A DNA stretch of 64,000 nt. Source: Marsupella aquatica. Taxonomy: Eukaryota > Plantae > Marchantiophyta. The number at the start of each line of letters is the position of its first letter. Position 1 is the first letter of the stretch. Below are positions 1,595 to 32,759 of this stretch, piece after piece. The position numbers and the translations under genes were made by a program. Where the stretch lies: positions 11,103,660-11,167,659 of the forward strand of contig OZ316893.1 of the NCBI GenBank assembly GCA_973895155.1, written 5' to 3'. The notes under the pieces are model-generated. The model did no database searches. It saw only the letters and a list, made by a program, of their open reading frames with translations, and was not told the origin of the DNA.

Positions 1595-1640
1595 TCCTCC
1601 CCCAATAGGATTGGAGCAGCCTCCGGTCTGCTCCAATCCA

Positions 1641-2640
1641 TCAGATTTCCTCTAAGTCTGAGTCTAAACTCGAGCCATGCATCTGGACCAGTTCCTCCTC
1701 TTCAAACTCACTCAAGTCAGAACTTGAGTCCATTCCCTTCTTGGTCCTCCTCTTGAAGATCTTCACCCTTTTCCCTACGTAAGGTACTTGGTGAACCGTT
1801 CCATCCAGCTCTCGAATAGTGTAGGTTGCATTCGCATGAACAGCAACCACCACATAGTTACGAACCTTGCCACCTCCGAGAAAACTTGTTTCGGCTCAAG
1901 TGTTGCTCATCCAACTTACTCTCGTAAACCAGAACCCAACCACCTTCCTTAACCAAGACAGGCCTCAATCGATGAGTCCTGTCAAACCTGGTCTTGTTCC
2001 TTAACCTTGCCATCTTCAATTCTCGGGGGTCTCACTTCCACAAAAATGGCATATCACGTGCGACGAAAGATAGGGTCATTTTATTGGTTCTAAGGGAAGA
2101 CTTAAGAATTTTTGTAGAAGAACAATAGGGTCTTTTAAATTCAATTTTGAGACTTATAAGAACATTAGGGTCTTTTTAATCCAATTTTTAGAATATTCCA
2201 AGAATATTCCAACTTTATAGGGGTTAAAAAATAAAAAAAATTCTTACATTTTAGGGGGTCCGAGGCCTAAAAACGTCGCAGGCGATGGGGAGGTCCCCAT
2301 ATAGTGAGACCCCCGAGCTTCAATTGCTTCCAAGCCACCTCAATCTTTGCAGGTAACAAGTTGAAGTGTTTGATCCTTTGAACCAGTAACTCCTCTCTCA
2401 AAAATTCATCTTTCCAACCAATCAGTTGCCAGCTACAAACATCTTCCTCTAGTAGCATCATTGGCAAGTGCCCAGTAAGTAGCTCAACCGGAACGTATCC
2501 AGTCACTGAGCTACAAGTCATCCGATCCGCTAATTAACAGAGCAAGTGGAAGAAGACTCGACCACCTGCCCAAGTCCCCATCACAAGCCTTAGCCAAAGT
2601 GCTCACAATCTGAATATGCCCCCTTTCAGATTTCTCATTG
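1641..2640 (-). pseudogene. Retroelement integrase C-terminal remnant (interrupted by a MITE)
   Basis: ORF 2267-2521 SSVTGYVPVELLTGHLP (end of integrase core) and ORF 1641-1853 VVAVHANATYTIRELDG...VKIF (GPY/F-type SH3-like C-terminal domain). Confidence 0.75.
2022..2317. mobile_element. MITE (296 bp) of the P-like family, nested in the LTR element
   Basis: Perfect 15-bp TIR CTCGGGGGTCTCACT/AGTGAGACCCCCGAG; perfect 8-bp TSD CTTCAATT (2014-2021, 2318-2325); first ~110 bp resembles the 26079 end of the large element. Confidence 0.95.
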
Positions 2641-3156: not shown

Positions 3157-3871
3157 CTAGATCTCTTGCCTCATGCTACCAAAGAACTCAACATTGGTAA
3201 ACCCTTGAGCATGTTGGCTCCAGAACTTCTCAGCTACAACCTCTGGGTACATAGTCTGGTCAAAATCCCTGCCTAGCACCCATCCCCGATCCTTTTTTAT
3301 TTGCTTCCCTTTTCCCGGCTCTTTCTCACTCATTTCCTCATCTTCGAACCTGACCCTCCTTTCCTTGTCTTGCGTATCCCACCTCTCTCGTTCCCCTGAT
3401 TGAGACGGAGTGTCATCCTCATCGGTCTTCTTCCTTTTTGACTTGACCGAGGCATCCCAACTAGCCCCAACCTCAACAATTATTGCATTGATCAGCACTG
3501 GATCACTCCATCTGGATCTCTCTCGCACCAGATCCGCCAAGCACCGTCGAACTCAACTCCTTCTCAACCAGCACCATGAACTCTTTCACCGCCGTCCCTT
3601 CGTCCAACTTGTAGACAACGGCCTCTGTCAAGTAAGAATTCAGGTAGCTTGTGACATTCCTCCCATCGAACTGCCCATTCTCCTTCAAAACCTCTTGGAG
3701 ACACCAAGTAGTTATATTTGCTTCCCTGTTCGCCCTTTCCGCCTCAAGCTCTTCCTTCCTTATGGCTCTCATCATCGACATGACGATGCCCGAAATCCGA
3801 TCGACTTTGTCATAGTCACCATCTTGTCCAATCGCCCCAAGGAATCCCCAGTATGGTCGCCAATGTCGCAA
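3157..3871 (-). pseudogene. gag-like remnant
   Basis: Frameshifted ORFs 3503-3871 (FDGRNVTSYLNSY, gag-like) and 3157-3540, directly downstream of the PBS. Confidence 0.65.
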
Positions 3872-4606
3872 GGACTAGAAGTTAGGCGCATCTCTGGCTG
3901 CAACTAGGATAGGCGACAAGCACTTTTCGAAGCGAACTCTCACTCCTTTATTTTTTTTAACTTTTCTCTCAATGGTTACAATGGGTTCCCTTGAGTAAGC
4001 TTGCTCGCAAGAGTCTGGTAGCTGGCCCTACGGCGGGCCGCTACCTCTAACTTGTCAAGATCAACTACTCAAGTGGCTATCTACTCCAAATCTGACGGAA
4101 AAACTCTCCTCCTTAGCTCACAAACTCCAAAACTGACTAGCTACTCGACTAGTCCTAACCTAGCTCACAAGAAACTCAGCCCTGGACCAACGAGACTCCA
4201 AGCTCAAGAACCAACACCGGATCCAAAACTCGCAGCGAAACACCAAAAATGCCACACAACAACCAAATTTCGCAGAAGGCAGCGGAACTCACAGAACAGA
4301 ACATAACATAACATAACTCAATAGCTAATAGAGAACCCCAATGAGCCGAAGCCTAATGCTTAAATAGCTTCCAAAAACCAACCTTCCAGCCTGAGCCAAC
4401 TGCTATCAGCGAGGCTCATCCAAACTCCAAGCCTGGTGAGTCACCCAAACATCGAACCTGGTGACGACGAGTCACCCAAACATCATACCTCATCCCCATC
4501 CAACCAAGCAACCTTTCCGAGTCAGCATGCCCGCAACTGATCAGCAACGCCTCGCCCATCAGCCCCTATAAAAGTCATTCTCGAGTTGAAATGTTTCAGC
4601 ACGACA
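3864..4606 (-). repeat. 5' LTR (743 bp)
   Basis: Direct repeat of 840-1594; adjacent PBS at ~3845-3862. Confidence 0.92.
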
Positions 4607-5133
4607 ACGTCCCTTCTTGCCCAAACCCTCAATACTAACAAAGTACATTGCATTTAAGGTGGAATCCGGTTAAGGACTAAACTTTTGGTGTGACAATTTG
4701 ATTTCTTGGCGTATATATGTTTCATTCAATGATATGCAAAGATCTCCCATGTACATTCAAGTTCCTTATCAGAGTAGGTTGATTTCCTCAAGGACAAGTA
4801 ATATTCTTTATGATCAAGGTCGAAGTCATACCTAGAGTCATACATGCTTTGCATGGCCGGACTGAACTTTACCTCATATTCAGGAAAGTTTGGAAGAGAT
4901 GCACACTAGTCCTTAGGAAAACAAGAAAGTTGTGCTCTCTGAAGCTAGGACAAGATATGAACATGACTAGTGCTAGAAAGGGTTGGATTTCATGCAGGTG
5001 CAAACCCTTTCAGCAATGCAAAGTGGCCTGGGACTTTCAAATTTAGTGGAAGGCTCATGTGATACTAGGTAGTAAGGAGTCATAAATCACAAGCACATGA
5101 TTCATTTGAACTAGTGACATCTATCTGGTCAAG

Positions 5134-11449: not shown

Positions 11450-13140
11450 TCAAAATTAGTTCACTTAATTCTTCTTTCTACCAGGAATTCATTGCCTCCT
11501 CCTACAAATCTGTCCTTTTGCCAAAACTTGGGTCCCAACCTTTTTGAATTGAACTGAATTGAATAAAAGCCAGAGTTCCCCTCACAAGGCACTACTACTT
11601 ATTGTGAGATCATAGCAGTTCCTTCAGGTCAGTTGTAGATGATTGCTCACACTTCCCCTCATGAAGCACCGTGCTATGCTCATAGAGGCGTTCAGCAGAT
11701 GCAACCAGCTTTGTGTAGAATTCTTTCATGCATCTCATCTACTAAGATCTATGAGACTTCTTGACTTTGATTAAGGTCCACTTTTGCTCTCTCCAACATA
11801 ATAACCTGGTTCAATTTTGCACTTGCTCTTTGTAAAGGCTCTCTGCACTGGAAATAATTGCATCTGGAAGGCCATGTTTCCTTGCTACATCTCAAAGCTA
11901 AGGTCACTCTACTTGAGGGTCGTCAGCTCTCCATGATGGGTAGTTGCCAGAGTTAACATGGATCCACCAGCTACTACCCCTTCTGCTGGGTTTTTGCCTG
12001 CGCTTAACTCATCCAACAACACCAATGACTGCTATGTTGATTTTGAAATGATAGTATTACGTTTTATGCAAGTCAAGTGCCTTGAGAATGGTCAAAAAAG
12101 TGACTGACCCAATGATTGCTTGTCACCAATATGACTGTGCGAAACCTGTGTCAAATCATGTTTTGTATACTAGATCCATGGCAAGCACATGATAAAGACC
12201 AACTTTGGCCATCAAAACTACCAGACCGGCAACCTTTATAATTGCTGTTTTTCCTCCAACATTGGGATCAGTGATTGCCACCACCCTAGTATGTGAACTT
12301 ATACGACCATCTGTGATGGCCCGGTATATGGGCCCTAGGGCTCTTTCTTTTGCTGCTGCAGTTTCCGCCTCTGCAATTACAATTTTCACTTAATCTAGAG
12401 TAGCCGTGGTTGAAGTGCCCCTTACCCTTGTCCTACTCAACAACTTTGTCTACCCCTTCAACTTGGCTTTGGCCTCTCAGGGGCTTCACTCTAAAGGGGG
12501 TCTCATGACACGCTCAACATTTTTAGCTATTAAACACCCTAAAAAATAGGAAAAAGTTTTTTAAAGCTATTTGTCTACCCCTATTTTTCTAGAATATTCT
12601 AAAAATATTCCCAAAATTCATTTCTAAAACGTTCTCTTCTCTTAGAATTCTCAAAATTGGATTTTAAAAACCCTAATGTTCTTCTACATAAATTTAAAAG
12701 TATTTTTCTCAACCCAATAAACAAACCCTATATTTACTTTCACATGATGGGTAGAAAGGAAATAAGTGAAGACCCCAGGTTTGGCCTTATGTACTGCATG
12801 ATGGTATTGCTCAGATACCAGCAGAGGATGCCAAAGATTTTCCAGGTTCATGCATGAGCAACTGATGGTCCTGATTTCCATCAACATCATCTTTCAATTT
12901 TTTGGTTCCATGATTTCTAGCTGTCAACAAGTTCAGTTTTTGGCCACCAATCCATGGACTGTACTTTCCATGAAGTGCCATGACATCCCTGATGACATCA
13001 AGCCACACAATTATCTCAAGAACAAAGTTGATATTATAGAATTGAGACCCAACCTTTGAAGCAATCCCAGATAATTCAGCTCACTCGGCCCCACGCTAGG
13101 CTCAAGCAACCTTGAGATTGGTTGTGATAGAATTTTTTTG
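11450..13140 (-). pseudogene. MUTS2: MutS2 (plant MutS2B-like) pseudogene fragment
   Basis: RVVAITDPNVGGKT..K..GL..LMAKVGLY (degenerate Walker A GPNxGGKT), then IGDKQSLGQSL, SLVLLDELSAGKNPAEG (Walker B), ATTHHGELTTLK and ARKHGLPDAII; many stops and frameshifts; interrupted by a MITE. Ends approximate. Confidence 0.85.
12476..12779. mobile_element. MITE (304 bp) of the P-like family
   Basis: Degenerate TIRs CTCAGGGGCTTCACT / AGTGAAGACCCCAGG; perfect 8-bp TSD TTTGGCCT (12468-12475, 12780-12787). Confidence 0.88.
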
Positions 13141-13176
13141 CCTTTGGATTCCTTGAGGAAACTAAGGAGCGATTCC

Positions 13177-13479
13177 CTCGGGGCCACACTCCAAGGGAGG
13201 TACCACGTCATGCGCAAAGTTTTCAAATAATAAACACCCAAAAACTTAAGAAAAGAAAAGAAAAGAAATTATATTTAACCCCTAACTTTATAGAATATTC
13301 TAGGGATATTTTCAAATTTGGTATTAAAACCTTGTAGTTTTTTTTATAATCCACAAAATTGGATCAAAACGTCCCTATTTTCTTCAACAATTTTTTTAAA
13401 GTCTTACACCCAATTGAATTAAAAACACGCTAACTTCTTCACGCACGATGGTCAAAAGAAAAGAAGTGCGAACCCTGGG
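13177..13479. mobile_element. MITE (~303 bp) of the P-like family, older copy
   Basis: Termini CTCGGGGCCACACT ... AGTGCGAACCCTGGG; internal similarity to the 12476 and 2022 copies; TSD decayed (5/8). Confidence 0.75.
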
Positions 13480-13719
13480 TCAATTACACGCTGCAGTGTT
13501 GGAGCAACCTAAACAAGAGACGCAATGGCTCCAGCTCCTGTCCTGATACATACATCCTTGCTTATCTTATACAGACAACTCTTTATATGCCATAGGAACA
13601 CACAATTCAACCGGAGTGAAACAAGGCAGGAAATATGGATGCTTCACAATAGAGAGTAATATTGATTCCAGTAACTTAATATGAATATGCATTGGCAGAG
13701 AGTACTATGGTATTATGAG

Positions 13720-14050
13720 CTTGGGGCCTCACACCAAGGGAGGTCTCATAACATGCGCAAAGTTTTCAAGTAATAAACACCCTAAAACTTAAGAAATAAT
13801 GTAAAATTTCTCCATGTTATTAAACCCTAACTTTACACAATTGAAGTTATCAAATTGAAGCAAAGAAAAGGATGTTCACATAAGAAGAAGAAAGGAGTTG
13901 CCATAAAATGCTTAACCTTTTTAAAGGGGTTTTTCAATTCAATTGGGCGTAAGACTCTAAATTTTTGTTGAAGAACATAAGAGGAGTTTTATATCAATTT
14001 TGAGAATAATAAGAAATATGGGGGTTTTTAATATCAAATTGGGAACTTCA
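13720..14050. mobile_element. Truncated/rearranged MITE fragments of the same family
   Basis: CTTGGGGCCTCACACCAAGGGAGG...TGCGCAAAGTTTTCAA matches the start of the 13177 copy; 13915-14050 matches MITE internal sequence in the opposite orientation. Confidence 0.6.
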
Positions 14051-15895
14051 AATCCTGCGTGCAACATACACAAGATTATTGCACAGAGGCTATGAATGTA
14101 GCAGAAAAAGACACATAAAATTGAGAGCTGTGAGTTTGTGTTCAATAGAGCTTTTACTTTTACAAGGTAAATTAATGTAATAAACTAAGATCAACACAGA
14201 TAGATGAGACATGAACTTGAGAGCCTAGAACCTGCTTTGGTACAAATGATAATTTTTGCAAAGCATTTTAGACTCTAAAAGAACAGACAAAAGGATGCAT
14301 AGGTTTTCTATCATACAGTTAAGGTTTGAAGAGCTCCAAAATCAAGTACTCCACCTAAAATGCTATAAAATTCCTTCAGCTGAGGTCTAATCCAACAGTA
14401 ATTGGCTCTATTCCTTTGTCGGAGGTGGTGTCAACCCATTACAGAGCTCCTTGCCCAGAGTGGTGGATACAAATCCAGCAATCATTGTATCTCACACAGA
14501 AGACCACCAAGCATGTACAGTGCTTCTTCAGCTGCATGTCGTCTATTCTTAACCTCCGGCCTCTTGGGATCTCCTACATACCCCAAATTCCTCCAGCTCC
14601 AGTCCCCAGTCTGTGACAGAAATTTGCACATATGAGCAGGAATTTGTGGGATATTTTGGCATCTCCAATCATCTCAAACCGGGAGACATTATCCCAAAGG
14701 CCAATCATTTCCTTCAATACATATACTATCACACTGCAAGAAAAAAGTACCAAACTGGGCAACAGGAGACAGGATCCATATTTTTGAGCACCTTGAGCTA
14801 GCCTACCCAGACTCATTCTACACATAAGGTGTGCAGCCACTTCCTCCCTTCTCAGTTGTCTGGTGTTTTTAATGTGGGAGCGCCAAACTGAAGCCATGTC
14901 AACACATTACACTCTATACATGGGTTGAGTGTAATACTGTCCAATCCAAGCCATTGGCAAATCTAAAACTAAAATTAGACAATTTAGTTACTAGCAATAA
15001 CAGGATGCCCGGTCCCATTTATGTACTCAGCACAAGAGTCAATCTTGAGGCTCATTAAGAGCCTCAAGTACTGCCCGTGCCTGCTGCCCGGCCCTTTACA
15101 ATTTTTTTGAGTTTTGAAGAGCATGAATGAACTCCACTTTTGGGTGGTGTGAATGGTAAAAGGGGAATGGGCTGTCGTGCGCATACACATTGCTACACAA
15201 CATACATCGCTTGTCACATACATCTAAACATAGTCTACCCGCCACATCACAAACACCAGAGAATGGAATACAAGTGGAATTCATGTCCTCGCTCATGTCC
15301 ACACATGTCCAAAACCCACAATAATCTCAATAGAATCAAGCCACTATCGATGCCAATCAAACATCTGATCCTGTCCAAAATGATCACATATAGATGTTGA
15401 GCCCTCGGGGGGGTCACTGTATGTAGGGCTCTACATCACGTGCGACGTTTTAGGGTCTGGACCCCCTAACTTTTAAGTGAAATTTTTTTTTCCCCACTCC
15501 CTCACTTTCTGAAAAGTGACCATTTTTTGAATTGTTTACCCCTATAAAACTTTATGGAAAGTTTTATGATGATTTAAAAAATGCCTATTAAGGAAAGTAA
15601 AGTACCTCAATAGTGTAGAGCCAATTGTGCAAATTAATGCACATTTCCAATACATTCAATGAATTTATATCATGAAGCTGAATATATTGTAAATTGCATT
15701 CATTATCATGCAACAACTTGTAGTTTTCACTCTTGAATAGTGAAGCATGGTGGGTGCCAGATACTATGAATAGGTAACCGAACACCTTAGGTTGCCTATT
15801 CAAGGCATCAGTACTCTACCTTGTTTCACAAACTTCCGCATGATGATGTCCACATCTCTACCTTCCTTCACAAACTCATGCATGATAATGTCCAC

Positions 15896-15954
15896 ATGAC
15901 GGAGGGGAATTGAACCCCTGATTGAGCATAAATCTCAATTTGCCAATCCGCCAT
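15896..15954 (-). ncRNA. 59-nt tRNA-like (D-arm-reduced, mascRNA-like) structure
   Basis: ATGGCGG-ATTGGCAA-ATTGAG(ATTTATG)CTCAAT-C-AGGGG(TTCAATT)CCCCT-CCGTCAT: 7-bp acceptor stem, 6-bp hairpin, canonical 5-bp/7-nt T arm. Confidence 0.55.
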
Positions 15955-16043
15955 CCCCTACTCTACTCCCTCCCACTAACCCTACACATGCATTACATAC
16001 ACACACAACAAACTACTTTTAATAAACCATAGTCAATTATATA

Positions 16044-19000
16044 TCACAATTTACTCACACTTTGAATGTATGTAGTCAAAGCTTGCAAGTCACTTGCATC
16101 TAGTACATACACTCTGTCAACTATACCAGACTTCATTGTCAAGTTCACATTTGAAATTACCATCTCAATATCAATCCATTGTTCATCTGTTGCATCATAA
16201 GTGAACAAAGTTTTGTTGTTACCAGTAGATTTGTACCAATTACACTGCAAGCGGCACACACTTCCACTCTGTCCAACTGCAGGTACAGGCCTGTCCAACA
16301 GATCTATTGCTTTCCGACGTCTGACCCAATGGGAGCCATTCTTCTGTATCATAAACTCAATCCTACCCAACCAATATTCCTTCTTTGCAGATGTTGCATC
16401 CACAATAGGCCCTTTATCTATTCCCTTCCTCTTCTTTGACTTGGATGATCTGGTAGAAGGACCAACCTCTGTAGCAGACTCAAACAAAACTGCTATATCA
16501 GTACCAATGTCAACCAAACAAGTCACAGAGTCACCATTTTCTTTCTCCTTACCAGTAGTGTAATAGGTCTTCTGGGCTATCCTAGTTAGCCTATCCTTTG
16601 ACATGAAAGGATTGCAGCACAATTGACTCACAAGAGTGGACTTGTAGATAGTCCTTCCCTCATAAGTTACAGTAGACACTACTGACCGGGGTGTCTGCAC
16701 ATCAGTTAAGTCTGCTTGAACTCCAGCCAAGACATGCCTTACTTCATGTCCTAGTGTCTCCATCTCACAAAATGGGTTAGTATCCACCTCAATTGAATAA
16801 TCATCAACTGTTAGTGGCTCAATACAATCCTGACTGTCCAGAGTGTCCCATGAATCAATCCGATTGAGATCTTCTTCAGGATCTTCAAACTCTAGAAACT
16901 CTCCAATTGGGGGCTCAGGTCTAGGGCCTACAGTAGATCGATGCTCAACTGTGTCTTCAGCATCATCACATAACACAGCCTCTTTCATGACACTTGTATC
17001 CGGCCAAGTCTCTGCCTCCACTTCCCAAGGATGAACCCACCATCGTCTTTTCGTTGCTGGCAAAGAACTTCTTGGTGACATGTTCAGCTTGCACAACAAA
17101 TCCTTTGCTTCCTGCAAACCTTCCTTTAAAGCATCAACAACCAGCTCATTAGTCAGAACTGCAGAGTAATCAAATAAATTTGGAGCTTGTTCTCCTTCAT
17201 CCAGAGGATGTAAAGTTGCCCAAACATGATCCTGTTTATCATGTGATCGACGTATCTTCAATCCCTCTGGTCCATACTCTAATCCAGCTAGTCGATCAGT
17301 CCCACTGCACTGTCCAGTAGAGATCCAAAGTCATAATTTCTCTCATGGCCACTCATGCCACCTACCTTGCTGAAAAATATCTCACAACAATCTGATCCCA
17401 GCAAGTGAAATGGTACTTGCAGATATGGGAACTTGTCCCGAAAGGCACAGACTAACAATACTACAAAATGACAAGACATGTTGATATCATGGAAAGCCTG
17501 CACAGAAATCATGTTCTTCTCTGTGATAGATCCAGCATTCCCTGTCACAGAATGATCACCATACCTCAACCATAGCCTCCACAATCGGAAGAACCAAGAT
17601 ACCTTTGATGCCAAGACAACACGGGTTCTTAGGTCATGCTTAACAGAGAAGAAAATATCTATGTAGTCTGCACAAACCTCCAAGTATATCATGGTCCCAA
17701 AGCTTCTGTCATGACGAACATCTCGTCGCTCATACATATGCTGCAGGCAGGCCTGCACTCTCCTGGAAGCTATTCGTTGTGGGCCAGCCCAGTTTTGTCT
17801 ATCTGTCCTATTCACATCATCCCAATGCAAACCATGCTCGTGAATTGCATAATGGTTATAAACAGATGTGACATATGACAAAGATGCATGCTGATCACCA
17901 AGAACTAACATAGCAGACACTCGGTCCAATGGGTTAATTGCCTTCTTGCCATTGTGAGGTGGGTCTTGGTCTCCAAAACCATATAGATCTCCATTCGGAA
18001 GTATGGACACTGAGTATTGCCACCCAACCCATCCTACACTGTACCTAGGAAAGGAACCATTCACAGCAGTATAATCTTCCATCATCAATTTCCTACGACG
18101 AGCATCACCATCACTAGCATGGCCCAACAAAGGACCAACACTGTCTCTGCAATGTGTGTCCCACATGGACTTCAGCTGCACCCAATGCTCTCTTACCCAG
18201 GGAGCTCGAAACTTGTTACATGTTGGTAGAACACACAATGCCAATTTAGGCATCTTTGCATGCAGAGGATTGACAATGATTACTCTAGCATACATGCCTT
18301 TGGCATATTGCTCAAAAGTACTTACAATCTTGTCATACCCTTCAGTACCTGCTCCAACCAGTACTTCCAAGCCAAAAGAACATGTGTGCTCTTCTAAGGG
18401 GCCACAGAAACCAATGAGGGTGTCATATTTAGCTTCCCATCTGTCACACACAATAGAATACAGACATCAGTTCATGACACGCAAACTCACCCAACACATT
18501 CAAAAAAACAAGCTAATTTACTACAGAGACAAAAACACAAACCTGGGTCTCTCTTTGATCCTTGTTTCATCTTCAGCAAACATTACTGGTACATCTCCTG
18601 CAATTCCAAGTGACTGCTTTGATGCACACAGTACTCTGCACACCTCCTGGAATATCTCTTTTCGAATGCCAGCTCTAAAGGGTGGGAGTTTTGCTCTATC
18701 ACGTTTCAAGGTCTTTAGACCTGGACCACCTAGGTTAGCCTGGAAACAATGAGCCACTTGTCTGCCTCCAAACTGAAACATGGCTTGGGAGAAGGCCTTG
18801 GTTCTCTTACTGTATCGATAACCCTTAGCAACTCTCTGCAAGTTCTTAGCTACATCTATCAGGAAATCCCACAACCCTTCCTTGCCACCAAAAGCACCAC
18901 ATCTATGTCCATTCACAATATTTCTCAGAAACAGTCTTAAATCTTTCCTATCATGGGCTACTCCTAATAAATCTTCTAGCTTCTTTCGCCTAACACTCAG

Positions 19001-20638
19001 GGCACAAATGTTTTGAGCCTGTTGTGCCAACAACCAACGCTGTTTCCTAAAGCGAGTGGTGAGGTTACCAACATGTTCCCTCAGTTCGGTTTTGGTCAAG
19101 TATGCCAACCTCATCCCACCCTGTGTAGTCCTGTCTCCTCTTTGCACTAATGCTTCCGCTTCCCTGTGCACCCTGCCACGAAAATCATCTTCACGTTTTA
19201 TAGAATCACATGGAGTGCAAGTGAGGTTTTGAAAACCACCTCCATTAATGGACACCCTGTGACATTGCTTGTGCCTAAAACAACCCTGTATACCAACAAC
19301 TGACTGACTAGTTACATTGAAAACCTCAGCACAGGTTGTACGGTCACAATCCCACACATTTCCTCCCTCTTGATCATCAAGTATGCCTTTCACGGTCATA
19401 GAATCCCCTGTCCACTTCACGTCTGACTCCCACAGGCCCCAACAAAGCAAACTTAAACTTGGCTCAATGGAGGAATACAACCCACCTCTGCCTGAACTGC
19501 TCCCTGCAGCAGAGCTGTCCTCTCTAAAGAAATTCAGAATAGAATTTTGAGATGGAAATAGATCACGAGCATCAGGCTTCCTTGGTCTCCCCTTCTTCCC
19601 TGCCCTCAGTGCAGCCTGGGTACTGGTGACAACGTTCTCAAGTGCATCCATATGATCCCGACTGACAAGGTGTTGCCTTAAATTGTGTTCCAAATTGGAT
19701 TTCTTAGGGCACATGTCAGTATGTAGCTTGCCACAGACTGTACATCTGACCTTAAACAGGAATGACCTATGTGCAAATGTTGGATCAGTGGGAGATGGTG
19801 TGATAGAGAACACTTCTACCACCCCACCTACCTCTGCATTCAACTTTCCCACTATTTCCACACTAGCCCCTATTTGCATACTATGATCAAACAATGGTTG
19901 CTGTATAGTGTCAGCAGCCGTCACCAAAGCTCCAGGTATACCCCTTCGCTTACACCAGTTCTCCTTGTGTTTAGGGTTGGTCAGGTGCTTTGTCTTGAAA
20001 TTGCTAAAGCAATTTGCGATGGACTTGAGCACCTGTGAATTGGCTGCATTCCCATAAGTCTCCCTACACTCTAAGCATTCTAGATGACCTCGACACTCCC
20101 CTCTCTCATCCCACGTCCGCACTCTCCACTTGTGCTCACCGAAGCCCTTCTGGTTTACCCAGGATCGTAGCTTCAACCACTCATCATTCCAGGTCTTTGA
20201 TGCAGCCTTAGACATGAGGTGAGACTCAAAGGAGCCTGTGACAGGCAGTACAATAGCCTGTACTGGCACCCCTTCTGTTTGTCCTTCAGTCAAGGGAATT
20301 GTGCCTGCCAAATTGGACACAGTGGCAGCAGATGAATGAGAGGAACCAATTGTGACCCTCTCAGTAGGCAAGGCAACTGAGGGTAATTGTGCAATCACGT
20401 AAATTGTCCCTTGAAGTTCAGTCACCCCAACAGTCTTCTCTGAAAAGCGCCGGACTCGACCAGGCAACCTCTCATCCCAAAAATCAAAGTCAAACTCTAC
20501 TGCTCCTACACATTTCAGACGGAAATCTGCCAGAGTCTGCCCTTCTTTGAAGGACATGACACAGATTGGCGTATCAGGCTTTCCTCCCTCCCCACCCTTT
20601 TCTACCAATCTGACAGAGCTCATGCCTAGGTGTGCCAT
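16044..20638 (-). CDS. P-element/THAP9-type DDE transposase, ~1497 aa after splicing and correcting one frameshift
   Basis: Exon 20638-18543, GT-AG intron 18542-18441, exon 18440-16044 with an apparent 1-bp deletion near 17296. Motifs in P-type order: YSKRTKAF..MF..GG....LGGPGLKTLKR (HTH), MFAEDETRIKERPRWEAKYDTLIGFCG (D1), HASDGD (D2), DQDPPHNGKKAIN (DxxH), GSDCCEIFFSKVG (E). Two N-terminal C2H2-like zinc fingers. Confidence 0.85.
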
Positions 20639-20789
20639 GATGGACAGTTATACAGGCTGTGAAAGTAAGGGACAGGGATTAGGTAGATGAACCTGTCATA
20701 CAACGATGGACAGACATGGAAAAAGATCAGGACTCAAGTCAACCATTCACAATGTCATTTGAACACTCAATCTATTGTAGTCAATGAGA

Positions 20790-20931
20790 CTTACTTAAGT
20801 CCATTTCAATTCATCAAAATTCCATTTCGTTCAAGCAAATACTTAAGTCCATTTCATTCATCGAAATACTTAAGTCGATAGCATGCAACCAAATACTTAA
20901 GTCCATAGCCTTCAACCAAATACTTAAGTTC
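20790..20931. repeat. Array of five ACTTAAGT palindromes upstream of the transposase
   Basis: ACTTAAGT at 20793, 20841, 20868, 20895, 20922; the last four are exactly 27 bp apart with variable spacers. Confidence 0.85.
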
Positions 20932-21123
20932 ATATAATTTAGGTTGTCTTATGGGTCCCGTACAAAAAAGGTTCAAGTTATAAGATGGTGAAATCAATAG
21001 CAGTCATGCTGGTCTAGTCATGGGTACTAGGGATATCAGAACCCTCAGGGATGACATGGCGAGTACAGTAAATCATGCGCCACTGTCCAATGTCCCAGGT
21101 GTCTCGGCCCCTCACCCTTCTCC

Positions 21124-21720
21124 TCAAGTGCCTGTCTGCTGTTGGTCCTTCATCACGACACCATGCACGAGGGCATCTACGACATTGGACAAAATCCCAA
21201 ATGCCCTCCCGATACTCCTTACAGACCTCACAGTAATGTCGTGGGCATATAAGAGCATCGGGAGTGCATCAGGGTTATCTGGATGGCGGGTGAAAGGCAT
21301 TTCCCCCAATCGCAGAAGTGTCCGAAGACAGCCCACATGGTAAAATGAGTAGCAGTCATCATGAGAACACTGTATCACAAGGGGCTCATCTGTGGTGGGT
21401 CTCAAGGTTCTACCAAGGAGTCCACAACCAAAACATCTTCCTCTGTTTTGCTGACAGAGGTCACAAAGCCAAGCTGCAGCCCAATCATGACCTCTGGAAA
21501 TGACAATCCGCTGACATGTAGGTCCATGGCCATCTTCTTCATCAGGGTTGTGGCCATCAACTACATAATGAAAATGGCGACCACAAGGGCCATCACAAAA
21601 CAAAACAGTTCCTCCCTCGTCACAGTGAAAACAACATGGGGATCCATACGGAGGTGCTCCCTATGCCCAAATCTTGGATCCAGCAGCTGACGAGCAATGT
21701 GTGCCATGCTGAACAAGATC
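21124..21720 (-). CDS. EDM2/NSD-like tandem PHD-finger coding region (in-frame TAG at 21661-21663; possibly pseudogenised)
   Basis: CFHCDEGGTVLFCDGPCGRHFH...C...WLCDLCQQNRGRCFGCGLLG...VIQCSHDDCYSFYHVGC has the Cys/His spacing of EDM2 PHD1-PHD2; splice acceptor TTTTGCAG near 21720. Confidence 0.75.
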
Positions 21721-21876
21721 TGCAAAATTACCTTCAAAAATTAGGGGCAGGCATGTGATGTACCAGAAGGAGCAACAGTCCACCAGCAATCACAGCCAGT
21801 AGCCTCCACCAGGGGCATCACTTCCCTGTGGGCTCCTTTGATCCATCCTGCAATGTGAGCAATGTAGAATCATAAG

Positions 21877-22389
21877 TCAGCAACTTGAATGTGCATCACC
21901 ATCGTGGGCAGAACCTGGACGTGTCCCACCACAGACACAATCATTGATGAAATGACAAGTATTCCACGCTAGGCAACCGCCCCATGCCATTCTTGCCATG
22001 TACTGTGCTTCAGTCTGCACTATGTTTGAGTCACCTCCCCTACAACGATGACATGTTTGGGTGTGACAATGGAGACAAGCCTCCAATAAGACACAGCTCT
22101 CATCCAACACTCCATCTACGTCTTTAACAAGACGGATACTATTTGGCACTAGTGGGGATGTACTCAGCCTGTTGTAATGGTTGCCAGACACAGATGGATA
22201 GCCCCAGCTTACAGCACAGTCTGTAGGCACGATCCCAGAGTGGATCATCTTCACACGAAATCGCACACCCTTCTGTTGATGGTACTCAGATAGAGCACTG
22301 CGTGTGACAACCATCTTCAATGCACCTGGGAATGCACCTAGACTGAGATTGTGCTCACTCCAACAAAATGACAAGTTCACAACAAACAA
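21877..22389 (-). CDS. Cys/His-rich coding segment of unknown family (probable exon)
   Basis: 170-codon ORF with CLHCHTQTCHRC...GCLAWNTCHFINDCVC; flanked by splice-like sites. Confidence 0.5.
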   Translation of the reverse strand: MFVVNLSFCWSEHNLSLGAFPGALKMVVTRSALSEYHQQKGVRFRVKMIHSGIVPTDCAVSWGYPSVSGNHYNRLSTSPLVPNSIRLVKDVDGVLDESCVLLEACLHCHTQTCHRCRGGDSNIVQTEAQYMARMAWGGCLAWNTCHFINDCVCGGTRPGSAHDGDAHSSC

Positions 22390-22615
22390 GGTACAGGGGC
22401 CGACCTTTGCTCAGACCCTAAACTTCCCCAATTTCTGCCTTGCGCTAGAATGTCCCTGCAAAAAAAAGAGAAGCAACTAAGTTTTAAAAAGCTACACACC
22501 AAAAGTCCTATGCACAGTGCTTGAAGAGCACAAACAGCAGACATGCAAAGAATTGCAGCAGACAAGCAACACTTTATAAAATTGCTTCAAGAGCAGAGGT
22601 TACATTTAGAGTAAG

Positions 22616-23179
22616 CTACACACATCTACGTTTTGGCATGATCAAGTTTACACTTCTCCAAACTGCAGCTGCCTTATCTTGTTTAATCTTTTCTACTTCT
22701 CTCTTGGTACAGTCTGCCTCAGACTCTACCTCAGTCAACATTAAGTTGAAAGGGCCTTCGTCTACTAGGACTCCTACTTTGAGGGATTCGCACATCCATT
22801 CAAATGAGACAACTTTCAATGCATGCTCTTGAATGAGGGAATTTACATCAGACCATGTCCACTTGGACATGAGTGCTCCCCAAGAACCAGCAACAATGTG
22901 AGTGGTGTTGCTGGAAGCAATAGGGCAAAGCTGACCATGACGTTCAATTAGCTTTCTGCGCAAAACTTCAAAACGAGCTCTTGAAAATCCATGCAGAACT
23001 AAGAAGGCATTCACACCCTTCAAAATTGGCTTCGAAACTGAACAGGGCTTTGGTGTAGACTCATTTCTACGACCCATGGGACAATAAACCCTAAAGCTAT
23101 AAGGCCGTGTTGTCCTCTGCAACAGTGTGGAGCTTACTTGGATCCTCCCAACAACTTCTGTAGTCGGATTAGAGCCCAA
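22616..23179 (-). CDS. BRCT domain of DNA polymerase lambda/X-family type (probable exon)
   Basis: ILKGVNAFLV..G..RARFEVLRRKLIERHG...TTHIVA...KVVSFEWMCESLKVGVLVDEGPFNL has the BRCT hallmarks (THxV, WxxxS) and resembles the Pol lambda N-terminal BRCT; no polymerase core follows. Confidence 0.8.
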   Translation of the reverse strand: MGSNPTTEVVGRIQVSSTLLQRTTRPYSFRVYCPMGRRNESTPKPCSVSKPILKGVNAFLVLHGFSRARFEVLRRKLIERHGQLCPIASSNTTHIVAGSWGALMSKWTWSDVNSLIQEHALKVVSFEWMCESLKVGVLVDEGPFNLMLTEVESEADCTKREVEKIKQDKAAAVWRSVNLIMPKRRCV

Positions 23180-23869
23180 ACTCCTTCCTCAGCACCCAAG
23201 ATCGACTGAATCTGCACATTCCATAGACAGTCAAAATATTGAATGGCTACCCTGTCTCCATCAAGACATTGACTGTGGCAAATGGCGTTTACACAACTAT
23301 TGACAGCGTTTCCAGAAATAGTGGACAAAAGATTCAACAAATTGAGTAGCAAACAAACGGACATTGGAAACAAAAGAGCAAGAGAAACAATTGAGTAAGA
23401 AACCAGAGATGAAGCACAGTCCACAGATAGTGTCTTCTATAGCAGTGAGGGTCTGGGGCTGCGTGATGATGCCCGCACTAGTGACCAAGAATATAGCACG
23501 CAATACACAATGTGGGGAAAATGAAGATGACAAATGTCCTTCCGGATGCGAGTGGGGGATGCCAGCCCAGATTTAAAATGTAGCCCTTGCAGACAATAAT
23601 GTTGACCTGTACTATGACATTGTTTAGTCTTACAATCAACAACAGGACGATGAGCAATGTCCAAAGGGCATGAAAATGATAGGCAACAAACCACTAACCT
23701 TCACTGCTCAAAGTTGACTAGCAGTAGCGAACGTCTTGACAAGCTCTTGAACTTGCGCAGTCCTTCCGGCCTCCGAACAGTCCTTCAAACTAGCGACAAT
23801 AGCACTCCTCACGACCTCCAAACTCGTGGCAATAGCAGTCCTCCTAGTTGTCTCAAAGAGAATCAATCT

Positions 23870-24245
23870 CGCGGAAGCAGCAGTCCTCTCGGCCTCCACA
23901 GTCAACTAGAGATCCAGGTTGCGGCAGCAAACAACAATCCTCCAATTTCTCATGAAGAAATTGGAGCTCCAAACTCGCAGCAACAATACTCCTCCTAGCC
24001 TCCACAATCAACTAAAGATCCAAAATGGTGGCAGCGCATAGCAATCGACCTTCGATTTCTCACAAAGAAAATGGGGAGCCTCCAAACTCGCACCAACAGT
24101 CCTCCCGGCCTCCTCTGGCACAGTCCACTAGAGCTCCAATGTTGCAGCAGCGCTGCACAACAATACTCCTCCGATTTCCCACAAATAGATGGAGCTCCGA
24201 ACTCGCACACCCAGTAGTCCTCCCGGCCTCGCGATCCACAGTAGA
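23870..24245. repeat. Diverged ~110-bp tandem repeat (~3 copies) inside the transposon
   Basis: Recurrent TCCTCCCGGCCTCCACAGTCAACTAGAG...GATTTCTCACAAAG...GAGCTCCAAACTCGCA. Confidence 0.7.
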
Positions 24246-25002
24246 CCCTATTCCACAACCAGGACAGAATGAATGCGGGAATGAATGTGAGGCACCAACA
24301 AACATTAAGGCGACGATGTTGAAGCACATTACAAATTGAAGCAATGATTATGAATGCAGCAAAACAGCAATGTGTACAGACCTTCGCAATGTGTACAGAC
24401 AATCGTGACCTCCACAATGAGCTCGATCCAAACCTTTAGCCAGGCAGCGACGTCCTCCCACTATTTCTTCAGAGCGCCGCCTTCCTCCTATTCAAATGTC
24501 AGCAAAATAATACATCAGAAGAAAGTATCAAGCAAAAGCTCAAAGCAAACTAAACTAAAACATGAGCCGCAAGTGCTGCACAAAAAATGCAAGTCTGCAA
24601 CACCTCTCAAATGCAACAGCTCCTCTCAACCTCCGGCCTCCTCTCCAATGCAACCGCAGTAGTTCTCGACCTCCAGCCTCTCCAATGCAACAGGGAGGAT
24701 CGCGCAAGTAGTAATCATGTCAGTAGGGGAACAGAGGACCAAGGCAACAATGAGGCCAACTCGCTGCGACCTCCCAAGCTCGATGTAATGTCCCAAGCTC
24801 TCACAATGGTTTGGGACGATGATGCAACAACTTGCAATGGTCTGGGACCCAACTCCAAGTGATGGCGCACAGGAAGCAGTCAAATGGTCTGGGCGCATAA
24901 GAAGCAGTTGGCAATCACAATAAGCAGAACACTGGACCACAATCACGCGCACCTCCAAGATGGCAATGACAGTGAGCACACAGTACATGGCGATGGTGAG
25001 TG

Positions 25003-25054
25003 GAAGCGATAGAGGCAATGCAAGCGATAGAGGCAATGCAAGCGATAGAGGCAA
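25003..25054. repeat. 18-bp tandem repeat (~3 copies)
   Basis: AAGCGATAGAGGCAATGC repeated. Confidence 0.85.
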
Positions 25055-25260
25055 CCAGATACCAATGTCAACCAATTGAAAGCGGAATGACAGTAACAGT
25101 CGACCTCGACAATCTACCTCCTCTCCAAACTTTCCCTGGAACTTGCGTCAGCAATAGTCTCCTGGCCTCCAGACTCTACCTAGCCTCGATCCTCTCCAAT
25201 GTCACGGCAGCACACAACATTCAAATGATCCTCTCCTAAGTTGCGGCACACAGCGCAGCC

Positions 25261-25476
25261 CTCCCGATTGTCACAAACTTGAACGATCCTCCAAAGTCAC
25301 GGCAGCAGACCTCCCGATTGTCACAAACTTGAACGATCCTCCAAAGTCACGGCAGCAGACCTCCTGATTGTCACAAACTTGAACGATCCTCCAAAGTCAC
25401 GGCAATAGACCTCCCGATTGTCACACAGTTGAACGATCCTCCAAAGTCGCGGCAGCAGACCTCCCGTTTGTCACAA
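25261..25476. repeat. 50-bp minisatellite, 4.3 copies, subterminal in the transposon
   Basis: CTCCCGATTGTCACAAACTTGAACGATCCTCCAAAGTCACGGCAGCAGAC starting at 25261, 25311, 25361, 25411 and 25461 (partial). Confidence 0.95.
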
Positions 25477-26342
25477 AGAAAATGAACATTGAGTTTGAAA
25501 CTCAATGTTTGCGCGTGCTCCCTGTTTCATCGATCCACCCTTGGGCCCACAATCCCCGTCCCTAAAGCCGCCACCCGGGCCATTTTTGACCATTGGATCT
25601 TCAACCCTAAATATCAATGGCCCTTGCAAACCCCGAGTGGCATCATGGGTCCCCCTAGGTTCCCGTAACCCACTTTAGACCCCGTCCCAATAAACCCAAC
25701 ATAAGTCCTTCACAATATAGTTTTTGGACAGAAGTTTGCGGTTACAATAGGGCAAATATTAAAACATTGATGTTGCAGAAAAAATGGATATTTGCCATGT
25801 AAAAACACGTGTCCCAATTACATGGAGACACATGGTCCAATATAAACATGACGCGTGTCGCATATACATATGGCAGTAAAACCCCTAACTTATATGGACA
25901 TCTTCCATGGAATATGTCCCAATTAAAAAATGCCTATTGTGCTTTAAAGTGGCCCAACAATTAAAACGGGCCCTATTGTTCTTCCACCAAACTTCCGAAG
26001 TCTTCCGCCGAACTCAATTAAATGGCCCTATACTTCGTCGCACATGATGTGTCACTTCCATGGAAGTGACCCCCCCGAGGTTGAGCCCAACGCACCTCGC
26101 ACTCCAAGGAATCCACGTTACATACCCGGTTACGTATACATGAAACTGGCCAGCCACACCATAGCCGCCAGAGCTCATGCTCAAAGGCTCAACATCGAAG
26201 AAGTGAGACCTTTGAGCCACAACAAAGGGATAACTATTCCTCACAAACATAACCTGAACCCTATCGGCTCATATAGCACACATATGAGACATATAAACCT
26301 AGATAGCACAATACACTCTAACACTACCTAGAATGATGTGAC

Positions 26343-26415
26343 AGGGCCAAGGCAGGATTCAAACCCAGGATCTCTCAGACTCAAATGAGTGCAGCTACCA
26401 CTCAGCCTGTGGCCA
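26343..26415 (-). pseudogene. tRNA-derived remnant / SINE head
   Basis: Minus strand GGCCACAGGCTGAGTGGTAGC...GGGTTTGAATCCTGCCTTGGCC: A/B boxes present, cloverleaf imperfect. Confidence 0.5.
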
Positions 26416-26637: not shown

Positions 26638-26780
26638 GCCCAGAGAGGCATGACTTTGTGGTAGCTCACTTGAGAAGAGATTGATAGGTCTTGGGTTCAA
26701 TTATTGTGGCTGACTTTTCCCTTTATGTGGCATTTCACAGATTTCCCCTTAAAATGAATAAAAATAAATAAATAAAATAA
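26638..26780 (+). mobile_element. tRNA-derived SINE
   Basis: Similar to 9377-9516; A-rich tail; flanked by direct repeat AAAATACCCTAATTT (TSD). Confidence 0.8.
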
Positions 26781-26856
26781 AATACCCTAATTTCTTTGAC
26801 AATCTTTTAAAAAGTGTTCCTTTAGAACCCTACACTTTGTTGCATGTGATGTGTCA

Positions 26857-27147
26857 TTTGGGGATTTCACTTCCACAAAAATGACACATCACGTGCGACG
26901 AAATATAAGGTCATTTTATTGGTTTAAAGGGAAGACTTAAGAATTTTTTGAGAAGAACAATAGGGTATTTTAAATCAAATTTTGAGACTTATAAGAACAT
27001 TAGGGTCTTTATATAACCAAATTGAATATTCTAAGAATATTCCAACTTTATAGGGGTTGAAACATTTTTTTTCTTACATTTTAGGGCGTTTGAGGCCTAA
27101 AAATGTCGCAGGTGATGAGGAGGCATCCATATAGTGAGACCTCCAAG
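26857..27147. mobile_element. MITE of the P-like family nested in the terminus of an older MITE fragment
   Basis: Highly similar to 2022-2317 along its length; flanking TGTCATTT duplication; the host fragment continues to a decayed TIR at ~27174. Confidence 0.85.
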
Positions 27148-29215: not shown

Positions 29216-29819
29216 CACTTTATCTGGATACGATAGTTTGAAAAACTTTTTGTTAACATTAGGGGAAGATTGGAGCAACCCTACCACAAAGCTGTCGGCA
29301 TATTTTATGGGCGCCAAAAATCATCCCAGATATCAATTTTTTAACGGCCCTGGGACAAGATCCATGTAAACCAGCTGATCTGTATCGAGGTTTTTTTAGA
29401 TGTCAGTCACTTTGTCAGCTCAAGGTCTCGGAAAGCAGCTTTACCAGCTAAGGTAATCCACCAGAAAGTTGGTGTACTGGGGTCCTCATGCCTCATGATG
29501 TAGCTTTTCTGGGCTGCCGGCCATCCGCCCATCCCAAGACCCACTAGTAGTGTAGTTGCTAAGCATGCACGCAAGCAAGCAGGCCAACAATCGACCCACA
29601 TTCCCCAAAGATGCAGCAGCCAACAAATGTCTAACCTCGCGTAGGAGTTGCTGCTGGACCGCCTCGATCATGAAAAGCGAGTACTGTGTCACCTGATCAT
29701 AGAGAATGGCTTGCATCACCAGGCTAATAGTTAAAAGTGATGGCTGCCGAAAATATGAATGACCCTGGGCCCCAGATTGAAGACGGAGTTACACACAAAG
29801 TAGGACGACATACCGTGCT

Positions 29820-31030
29820 TTATTCTGTTTGATTGATGGAGTGTAATTAATTCTCCTAAAATCTTTCGAGCCAAAGCAGAATGTTCTACGAACGATCCAT
29901 GTCCCACTTGCAAACCAGTTATGACAGTAGATGAGAATCATTATTAGCTTATCACTCTCTGTAATTCAGTGGTAGCTCCTATCTCTTATTTTTCCCTCTT
30001 TCCAGGTTTTTGGGTTTGCATTTGCCCTCTGGATTTCTTGTGCTTTTAACTCCATTGTACTTAAATTGGTCCTTTTTAGTGAGTTGGTCCTTTTACTCTA
30101 TGAACGATCGAAGGAAAGAATGAACAAGGGGACGAATGTGTCTAGCAAAGAGAAAACCTGGAAACCTAGAATTCTGCAAATGCTTCGTTCTGTTTCATTC
30201 ATGCAATGTAATTAATTCTGTGAGAAGTTTTAGGGTTTAGTTTGTGGTTTAGTTTCGAGCCAAAACAGAATGTTCTATGAGCGATTGATGGAATGAATGA
30301 ACAAGGGACCGATTACGTCTAGAGAAGAGAAGACATGGAAAACGTCTAGAGAAGGCTCCAAATTAATCTGTTTGACTTAATTAATTCTGTTCAATCTTTC
30401 GAGGCAAAACAGAACGCTCTACGAACGGCCATGGAATGAATAAACAAGGGAACGAATCCGTCTAGAGAATGGAAAACGTCTAGAGAATGCCGCACATGCC
30501 TTCTTCTGTTTGTTTCATGGAATGCAAATAATTCTGTGAAATCTTTCGAGCCAAAACAGAATGTATTATGAACGATCGATGGAATGAATGAACAAGGGGA
30601 CGAATAAGTCTAGAGAAGAGAAGAGCAGACTTGGAAAATATCTAGAGAATAGTACAAACACTTTCCTTGTGTGATTCATGGAATGCAATTAATTCTATGA
30701 AATTTTTCGAGCCAAAATAGAATGGTCTATGAACGACCGATGGAATGAATGAATAAGAGAACGAATGCGTATAGAGAGACATGGAACGCGTCTAGATCGA
30801 GAAGAGAAGAGCAGACATGGAAACTGTCTAGAGAACGGTGCAAACGTCTAGAGAATGGTAGCAAATAATGATGATGGTAGAGAAATGCTCCCCGCTAATA
30901 CTTTAAACAAATGATGGAGAAACCATGAGTGACAGATGGAATGCAAGGACAAGGGAGCGAATAGTTAATTCTTAAGGACAAGTCATAAAATAAGACAAGA
31001 GAAGACATGGAAAAGGTCTAGGGAATGGTG
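29820..31030. repeat. Diverged ~150-bp satellite-like tandem repeat (~6 units)
   Basis: Recurrent TTCGAGCCAAAACAGAATG...GAACGATCGATGGAATGAATGAACAAGGG...GTCTAGAGAA. Confidence 0.85.
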
Positions 31031-32759
31031 CAAAACAGGGACCCCAGATGGTGAATCCTAAAAGCTACTCTAAAGGACTATCCGGGACAGTGAGCTCCCC
31101 TCAATTTTTTTACGTGTGGGAGCCCTGCAAACAGCAGGAGATCGTTGCAGGACTTTGATGTATACAATACTATTTACAGAATTGATCACATGAACATACC
31201 AAACAGCTACATTAGCCAGAGAATCGAATTTAGCTTGCAGTTTGCCGAATTCTAAACATGACTGTGCTCCATGATTTATGCCATAGGGTAGCACTCAGGC
31301 TCGTGACTGTCACTCCAGTCTGCCAGTCTGTGTTTGCCGGTGATCTAAAAATCGAGATTCTTCTCACAAGGCAATGTGTCATATCGATATAACCCCAGCG
31401 AAAGTCTACTGTACTAGTCTAGATGAAATCGCCACGGGCAAACGTGTTCAAGCTGGGCTACTCTAGCTCTTCCACTGTCGGGTGCTTTCGATGGTCCTTC
31501 GAGAATTCAATGGAATCGATCGATCGATGTAGAAGCGCTTTCAATTCAGTAATTTTCTAAGCAGATGAGACTGCGAAAATCATTCAATGCGTGTCCTTTT
31601 CTCAAATTCAATTCTAACCCCCAACAATTCCACTCCAAATTCTGCTCCTGCATGTGACTGGGTAGGAGTGTAGGTTGTATGCCAAATCCCTTTGTTGTGC
31701 CGGTTATGTGTTATGTGCCACCATGTGCTTGTGTTAATTGCAGGAATTCTATAAAAACATTCAAGAAATATAACCCGATGCCTTTCCTTTGCCTGCATGC
31801 AGCTTGCTCAAGGGTGGTTTCCCTAAAACCCAACAACGTCCCTGAAGCTTACAACATAGTACATTTTTTGTTTTGCTTTTCTCAAGGACTTTTTTCAATC
31901 TAATCACTGTAACGGACTACCAGGTTTTAGTTCGAATACACTGGCCGATAAAAGGCGTATTTTTTGGGAAAATCAAGTTCTGTATCTAATAAATACAATT
32001 GTAATTCTAGTTACTAGCTGCTGGAAATGGAGGAACACCTTTTAGTTGTCTTGTCTTTTTCATGTTGCTTGTCATGTATTTTTATATGCATTTGATTTAG
32101 TCTAGGATTTTGTTTTGTATTATTTCAAATTTAGTAATTTCTTCTAACCCCCTTAATTTTTTAAATGGCCTAGTTTCAATCAGGTACTTTAGAGTAAACG
32201 TTGTCTTTTCAAGTCTCTACTTTTCTCTGCTCAATTAGTCCCTATGTCTGAGGAGAGACACTCCACCAGGCTCAACCGGGCAACCAGAACTCAACGGAGG
32301 GGATGTACTGTAGCTTATATCCCCATTGGTTTAACTTTACAATAAGTATGGTTTATACATCAATAAGTGTCACCTGAATAAAGAGCCCCTAAAAATACAG
32401 CTCAAATTAAAGGTTAAAAAGTTCACTTATTTCTCTTTCAAGGAATATTGTACCCACAGTACAATAGTTAAACACAGTGTACAATAGTTAATGTAATTGT
32501 CTTTTTCAAAGTGAGAAAGTACTCTACCTCTGGTTGAAAGAGAATCACTACAAGACAAATAAGCAAGCATGTTCCAATATGAGTATGCTATATAGTTGCT
32601 ACAATAAGTTACAGTTCTTTCACCGACTACTTTAGATTTTTGGATGGAGAGCAAATTTACTCCCTGTTTTATTTCCGGTTTCCTTGGACTCACCAGTTAA
32701 ATGACCCTCACTTATAAGCCATAGTTAGGACTAGGGTATGATTCTATGATGACTTTAAT

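Follow-up and report, generated by a model that had tools for sequence, protein, structure and literature searches.

The window, a 64,000-nucleotide stretch of the Marsupella aquatica genome, contains a DNA transposon whose features are listed in Table 1. Its termini begin with CTCGGGG, unlike those of the Drosophila P element, and identical 15-bp ends are found on L002, a complete relative. In public contigs the corresponding empty site is preserved as a joint from position 15395 to 26084, within another repeat. Four features follow each other on the minus strand: a BRCT open reading frame (ORF), ORF2, a cluster of PHD fingers, and the transposase gene. A preliminary description had located the BRCT ORF within a transposon, and this is confirmed by the ends at 15404 and 26079, the flanking duplication GTTGAGCC, and the empty-site contig.

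Table 1. Features of the transposon, its cargo and a related short element (positions in the window)
Feature	Position	Strand	Evidence or remarks
P-superfamily-like DNA transposon, 10,676 bp	15404..26079	minus, all genes	inverted ends, 8-bp duplication, empty-site joint, transposase family fold
Left 8-bp target-site duplication GTTGAGCC	15396..15403	+	
Right 8-bp target-site duplication GTTGAGCC	26080..26087	+	
Left terminal inverted repeat	15404..15418	+	15 bp perfect, imperfect to ~55 bp
Right terminal inverted repeat	26065..26079	-	
Transposase gene, ~1500 aa	16044..20638	-	collinear with L001 and L002, 30-51% identity
Transposase first exon	20638-18543	-	
Transposase intron, predicted, 102 nt, GT-AG	18542-18441	-	junction matches intronless relative L002
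NSD-type PHD-finger cluster, second cargo	21014..21660	-	Pfam PHD_NSD E 1.1e-7, PHDvar_NSD E 0.008
ORF2, 177-aa open frame	21877..22410	-	no Pfam match, no usable Atlas match, no notable match in L001-L003
Spacer after BRCT stop	22394..22615	-	unalignable in diverged copies; strong acceptor-like splice site with 22455 as first exon base
BRCT-only ORF, 153 aa	22616..23077	-	Pfam, AlphaFold model, alignment to P0001
Helix-1 motif, residues 30-39	22961..22990	-	Arg35/Val38/Leu39 align to Pol lambda Arg57/Leu60/Phe61
Subterminal repeat arrays, 26-35 nt family, 50-nt tandem at 25205-25504	23780..25504		element's 5' part
MITE, 296 bp, non-coding, own 8-bp duplication CTTCAATT	2022..2317		related ends

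The surroundings of the element are rich in other repeats. The transposon is enclosed by a repeat of ~490 bp (15173–15403 and 26080–26344) that has TG...CA termini and is flanked by GGGC on either side; the repeat resembles a solo LTR, and contigs also join 26344 to 15173. Short non-coding elements with the end sequences of the transposon occur at 2022–2317, 12477–14040 and 26638–27146, and at 26638 and 27141 the flanks in the contigs are both sharp and varied, as expected of an abundant MITE family. Four 27-nt tandem repeats (20818–20952), perhaps regulatory, fill part of the interval from the PHD cluster to the start of the transposase. Direct repeats at 887–1601 and 3893–4613, 90–94% alike and ~3 kb apart, are possibly the LTRs of a small retroelement, and arrays of a ~150-bp repeat lie at 29800–31035 and 57308–57757.

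The transposase was placed by a fold search only; PDB sequence searches did not classify it, and Pfam yielded nothing useful. Sequence comparison finds 85 relatives with an E of 0.001 or below. Those with a name come from Riccia sorocarpa, Riccia fluitans and Adiantum nelumboides, which points to a seed-free land plant as the likely host; a scan of viral contigs gave 39 pattern matches, none of which was confirmed. The second exon is frameshifted near 17295 in the window copy, and contigs from all four sequencing runs carry a one-base insertion there. The fold test used the core of L002, which is 51% identical to that of the window. This model (pLDDT 87) matched the Drosophila P transposase 6P5A with a Foldseek E of 1.1e-11 and a TM score of 0.72 on the target, and the next family followed at E 3e-3. 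By this match the modelled L002 core has the split RNase H fold with an insertion domain, as in P transposase.

According to the accessible part of PMC3698922, the P superfamily is marked by a DDE triad with a D(2)H motif. In our alignment of 48 rows D295 of this motif is invariant and H298 is at least 90% conserved; the window sequence reads DPPH. Assigned by their position, AEDET, SDGD and SDCCE probably contain the DDE residues. Three of the four elements checked (the window element, the MITE at 2022–2317 and L002) are flanked by 8-bp duplications, and none was seen for L001. Pfam found no THAP domain. Since THAP is restricted to animals, as stated in the available portion of PMC7776569, this absence excludes the animal P/THAP9 family and not the P superfamily. 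The element thus shares with the Drosophila P element (6P5A, 6PE2) the inverted ends, the 8-bp duplication, the D(2)H motif and, through L002, the fold of the catalytic core, and the earlier P-type framing holds. It differs in its ~1500-aa transposase with 12% core identity and no THAP match, in its length of 10.7 kb, in its BRCT and PHD cargo, and in having its named relatives in liverworts and a fern. We conclude that liverworts and a fern harbour a P-superfamily transposase lineage that escapes Pfam as well as sequence searches of the PDB. The literature that we searched on P elements in plants, with most subscription papers outside its reach, contained no description of this lineage.

The BRCT frame extends from stop to stop over 22616–23188 on the minus strand. 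The gene had been placed at 22616..23179; its stop at 22616 stands, whereas position 23179 reads TTG and the first ATG lies at 23077, in agreement with the start of a 146-aa relative, P0001. Pfam assigns the product to BRCT (PF00533) at 22.5 bits, where the cut-off is 21.3 (E 1.4e-4). The domain covers approximately residues 14–114 and is followed by a long C-terminal helix (116–143) and a basic tail, PKRR, which is probably a nuclear signal; 38 residues separate the end of the domain from the end of the ORF. An AlphaFold model based on a 20-row alignment reached a mean pLDDT of 92.8 with a confident BRCT fold and the C-terminal helix, and VIA-align superimposed it on BRCT structures with Z up to 16.2 (rmsd 1.4 over 93 residues). 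An ATG-initiated ORF of at least 153 aa occurred in 12 of 300 shuffles of 20650–26079, and the domain match removes a chance ORF as an explanation. Pfam detected no polymerase (Pol X) domain in the seven element frames scanned, and the description of an intact BRCT ORF without a polymerase core is confirmed. With no Pol X domain in these frames nor in the 24 database matches described below, the ORF is not a Pol lambda gene.

We considered whether the BRCT might be only the initial coding exon in a spliced BRCT-(ORF2)-PHD gene, encoding a chimeric reader of chromatin or of DNA damage for targeting or for escape from silencing. Such a gene would be compatible with a cargo that lies entirely on the strand of the transposase, with the PHD cluster 1 kb downstream of the BRCT, and the predicted intron of the transposase gene indicates that the element uses splicing. 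The strong acceptor-like site at 22455, 160 bp past the BRCT stop and in phase with ORF2, points in the same direction. However, no splice donor scoring at 6 of 8 consensus positions is found near the end of the BRCT ORF, the GT in its last codon is missing from diverged copies, and in the window copy a stop codon follows 14 codons past the acceptor-like site. The C-terminal residues are also conserved with P0001 right up to the stop. Diverged copies read R-R-C-I-stop at the same place, and the next 228 bases are unalignable (loose end at 22622); a joint of 22393–22622 is present in contigs of runs X1 and X3, and diverged copies retain the link from the end of the ORF to ORF2. With the stop position kept in these copies and P0001 ending at the same column, the ORF is stand-alone at the coding level, as had been claimed. 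Judged by these sequence features, a stand-alone gene appears to be the better reading, and we regard the fused exon as improbable.

ORF2 is possibly not a gene; its assignment as SET-like or OTU-like from motifs was dropped because it had no match of any kind. The PHD cluster is split over two frames near 21263 in the window copy, and other contigs have a one-base insertion at this position. A PDB sequence search with the PHD frame gave no match. The cluster may resemble that of plant EDM2, which affects transposon silencing. It may act as a chromatin reader in targeting or anti-silencing, and it may also be a gene fragment.

An exhaustive BRCT search of 1.84 billion representative proteins returned 24 matches, of which 21 are BRCT-only, two are Pol lambda-like and one is false. 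The latter, P0016, is a bacterial Ig-repeat protein and was dropped. The BRCT-only proteins comprise 15 single and six tandem forms (P0002–P0007, 225–313 aa, no informative name), all without a polymerase domain by Pfam. P0001 is 63% identical to the ORF, has the same start and stop, and aligns without internal indel over residues 10–153; the other matches are 26–36% identical. A family that is BRCT-only in 21 of 24 matches, with one member so similar and with the same ends, argues against the ORF being a recent piece of a host polymerase. No full-length plant Pol lambda appeared among the matches, which makes recent capture from host Pol lambda unlikely, although this is no direct comparison with plant Pol lambda. 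A search for longer fused forms found none in 7985 candidates of 549–2000 aa, a range that leaves out 269–548 aa and thereby plant Pol lambda itself, at ~527 aa by the domain sizes given in the accessible part of PMC4444747. Scans of metagenome and viral contigs for the BRCT yielded 66 and 19 pattern matches, respectively, with none confirmed in either set, and the Atlas gave generic BRCT clusters, all below 0.9.

Three of the 20 matches looked up were named, all of them from Riccia, and over 900 locus tags separate these genes from every one of the 24 named Riccia transposase matches. In P0015 from Riccia sorocarpa the BRCT forms the end of a 493-aa model, the first part of which, we assume, resembles the tail of a non-LTR retrotransposon. 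The BRCT family may ride other mobile elements too.

The domain had been called Pol lambda-type, and this assignment stands in part. Human Pol lambda BRCT is the best PDB sequence match of the ORF (E 8.5e-5 over 46 residues), followed by REV1 (E 0.014) and TopBP1 (0.06). In the accessible part of PMC12056208, Arg57 and Leu60 of human Pol lambda contact Ku70/80. The equivalent of Arg35 is present in 9 of the 19 family rows that have a residue at this column, and P0001 has Arg and Leu at the Arg57 and Leu60 columns. The two Pol lambda-like proteins also count toward this link, as they are the only non-family BRCTs among the 24 matches: P0021 matches human Pol lambda with E 3e-14 and P0020 groups with Pol lambda at 100/100 in the tree. 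On the other hand, profiles, fold and tree do not single out Pol lambda. The family profile scores REV1 at 38.1, TopBP1 at 36.8 and Pol lambda at 34.9 bits, and a 13-row subset scores TopBP1 at 32.0, REV1 at 31.2, TdT at 31.1 and Pol lambda at 30.7 bits; these scores lie within 4 bits of each other. Foldseek with the ORF model ranked XRCC1 first and Pol lambda sixth (24% identity). VIA-align placed PARP4 first, with XRCC1 also in the top rows, and Pol lambda was not among the 50 best matches listed, which does not exclude it. A tree of 39 domains, with no outgroup and no plant Pol lambda, leaves the domain unplaced; this tree includes P0004, P0015, P0020 and P0021, which were left out of alignment A1.

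Compared with the BRCT domains of Pol lambda, Pol mu and TdT, the ORF thus has the same fold, its best single-sequence match, and the helix-1 arginine with a hydrophobic pair. It differs in the missing polymerase core, the identity of 24%, the added C-terminal helix, and its place in a separate family of single or tandem BRCT-only proteins whose profile does not favour Pol lambda. In BRCA1-type domains the phosphopeptide pocket includes a serine or threonine where strand 1 ends; no such residue is seen in the ORF sequence. On the single-sequence matches we lean toward the Pol lambda assignment.

Is the BRCT necessary for the element? A metagenome scan for transposase relatives reduced 58 pattern matches to three loci, L001–L003, of which L003 is a 1.1-kb fragment and uninformative for cargo. 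L002 is a complete element of 6,096 bp with an 8-bp duplication and an unbroken transposase frame of 1520 codons (794–5353). L001 measures 8,758 bp, has 15-bp ends and contains an unbroken frame of 1517 codons (1181–5731). The family profile detected no BRCT in any six-frame segment of L001–L003, and BLAST detected no PHD cluster. Two complete relatives with intact transposases and without BRCT show that the BRCT is not required. The preliminary description had named absence from other family members as evidence against a function; the BRCT is indeed missing from two of two complete relatives, both of them distant, with 51% identity in the core. The cargo is optional for the wider family, and uselessness in the lineage of the window does not follow. 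L001 contains a different frame of 174 aa (7003–7524) 3' of the transposase with no Pfam match, which suggests that cargo varies by lineage.

This absence is what one would expect if a BRCT-only gene and a PHD fragment had been picked up from the host or from a mobile element and copied without benefit. Pack-type transposons such as Pack-MULE and Pack-CACTA carry captured gene pieces in this manner. The window element resembles them in having host-like domains, in several unrelated cargo pieces, between inverted ends; unlike them, it has a full transposase gene, a whole BRCT ORF and no near-identical donor among the sequences found. The distance of the Riccia BRCT genes from the Riccia transposases, and the frameshifts in the PHD cluster and transposase of the window copy, would also suit a passenger. 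Against it, the 24 matches from 1.84 billion representatives include no near-identical host donor (a search that did not contain the host genome), the ORF is complete with a start and a stop codon of its own, and diverged copies keep the ORF end and the link to ORF2 despite a changed spacer.

Selection on the BRCT bears on the same question. Contigs covering the ORF number 54, 62, 122 and 17 in the four runs (two organisms), and 5–19 per run are less than 90% alike. This divergence among covering contigs indicates that the ORF is present in many diverged copies; contig depths were not taken as copy numbers. None of the contigs listed carried BRCT and transposase together. The six runs listed as containing the sequence include no RNA run, which carries no information on expression. 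The 40 best-supported of 148 variant rows comprise 14 silent and 26 residue-changing variants and no stops, the last being an outcome with a chance of 0.17–0.21. Among copies, for which dN/dS had been proposed as a check, pN/pS is 0.53–0.76 (P 0.045–0.26), which is not significantly below 1 at a realistic transition bias, and the value is approximate for multi-change codons because changes were scored singly. The observed transition bias of 29:11 favours the non-significant end of this range. For the transposase, 16 rows, taken from the 40 listed of 2043, include nine silent changes and give a pN/pS of 0.26–0.32 (P 0.008–0.02); the difference between the two genes is not significant (Fisher P 0.23), and their rows were chosen differently. 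Frameshifted BRCT copies exist as well: among the 12 indel rows listed of 18, 9 of the 11 inside the ORF have frameshifting lengths, two of them forming a compensating pair, mostly in minor contigs. Well-supported variants in helix 1 are G30E, R35C, L39F and R40H.

We also compared the ORF and P0001 with neutral simulations matched for identity. The pair is identical at 76% of independently conserved columns against 56% in the simulations (P 0.026–0.029), shares an identical run of 15, longer than simulated (P 0.024–0.027), and differs by milder substitutions than simulated (P 0.038–0.063). These three measures are not mutually independent, and P0001, itself detected as an intact protein, introduces a bias into tests based on an intact ORF. 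Taken together, the sequences point to a constraint on the BRCT that is moderate or past and may be relaxed in many copies. It looks weaker than that on the transposase, with some copies decaying. If the cargo were a neutral passenger, the signs of past selection would stem from the donor gene; we consider the passenger reading, including this origin of the signal, somewhat unlikely.

The reading that we prefer, tentatively and at a little under an even chance, is that of an intact BRCT-only cargo of one P-like lineage, likely kept by moderate selection, whose product is predicted to be a nuclear protein docking on the break-repair machinery through helix 1. Under this proposal a small protein would be expressed, enter the nucleus and bind host repair factors, most likely at the Pol X site on Ku. 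If bound to Ku, it would be a competitor of host Pol lambda and so reduce fill-in at staggered breaks, including the donor sites of the element. As it has no known tether to the transposase, its action would be in trans and nucleus-wide. P elements gain copies through gap repair, and less fill-in might, as a putative further step, lead to higher copy number.

Studies of Pol lambda give this proposal its direction. As far as the accessible part of PMC12056208 goes, Ku brings the isolated Pol lambda BRCT to damage sites in human cells, a catalytically dead Pol lambda on the Ku site is a dominant negative for gap filling, and blunt end joining is unimpaired by Pol lambda BRCT mutants. The BRCT of Arabidopsis Pol lambda binds Lig4 and XRCC4, and this polymerase has a role at transposon excision sites, both as cited in the available portion of PMC4444747. 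From these data, a BRCT-only protein would compete with Pol lambda and not recruit it. Since dead Pol lambda lowers gap filling and BRCT mutants spare blunt joining, a decoy would alter junctions and not the choice of pathway. The preliminary description had proposed a decoy or adaptor that biases repair; we retain a weak form of the decoy and do not favour the switch of repair to recombination.

It had further suggested that the domain brings gap filling to the 8-nt target gaps. As a dedicated tool of transposition, the protein would do this or steer the donor break to homologous repair. The P-like fold, the 8-bp duplications and the helix-1 arginine would suit such a tool, and donor breaks of P elements are repaired by recombination or by Ku-dependent end joining (PMC7776569, in the part accessible). 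Set against this are the complete relatives with intact transposases and no BRCT, the spared blunt joining, and a domain with no polymerase and no tether shown. The target gaps, moreover, are probably single-strand gaps that lack a Ku-bound end. We therefore do not retain recruitment at target gaps, and consider a dedicated tool of either kind very unlikely. The docking protein favoured above has a more specific extension, in which a land-plant P-like lineage made a BRCT of Pol lambda origin into a stand-alone decoy for the Ku site. Such a decoy would prevent polymerase-assisted end joining where the element itself has been excised and would thereby raise copy number. We judge this full scenario to be a long shot. 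Arg35 offers a one-residue test of the docking idea.

Accessory proteins of transposons are known from Mutator elements, where VANC and Ulp1-like cargo are examples. The BRCT ORF is like these in being an optional extra ORF found in certain lineages within a superfamily of DNA transposons; it belongs to another superfamily, contains another domain and has a function that is only predicted. The literature searched, which covered few subscription papers and excluded repeat databases, contained no description of BRCT cargo in transposons, and this is weak evidence of novelty. Cut-and-paste elements depend on host repair of their own excision breaks. A transposon gene that interferes with donor-break repair would, if real, amount to a novel type of accessory function, and a true Ku-site decoy would mean that a transposon encodes an inhibitor of host end joining, taken from a hitherto undescribed family of single and tandem BRCT-only genes. 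L002, complete and with an unbroken frame, could serve in activity tests. Should the cargo prove neutral, the locus still leads to a P-superfamily lineage that is invisible to Pfam and has intact members in L001 and L002, and to an unnamed BRCT-only gene family.
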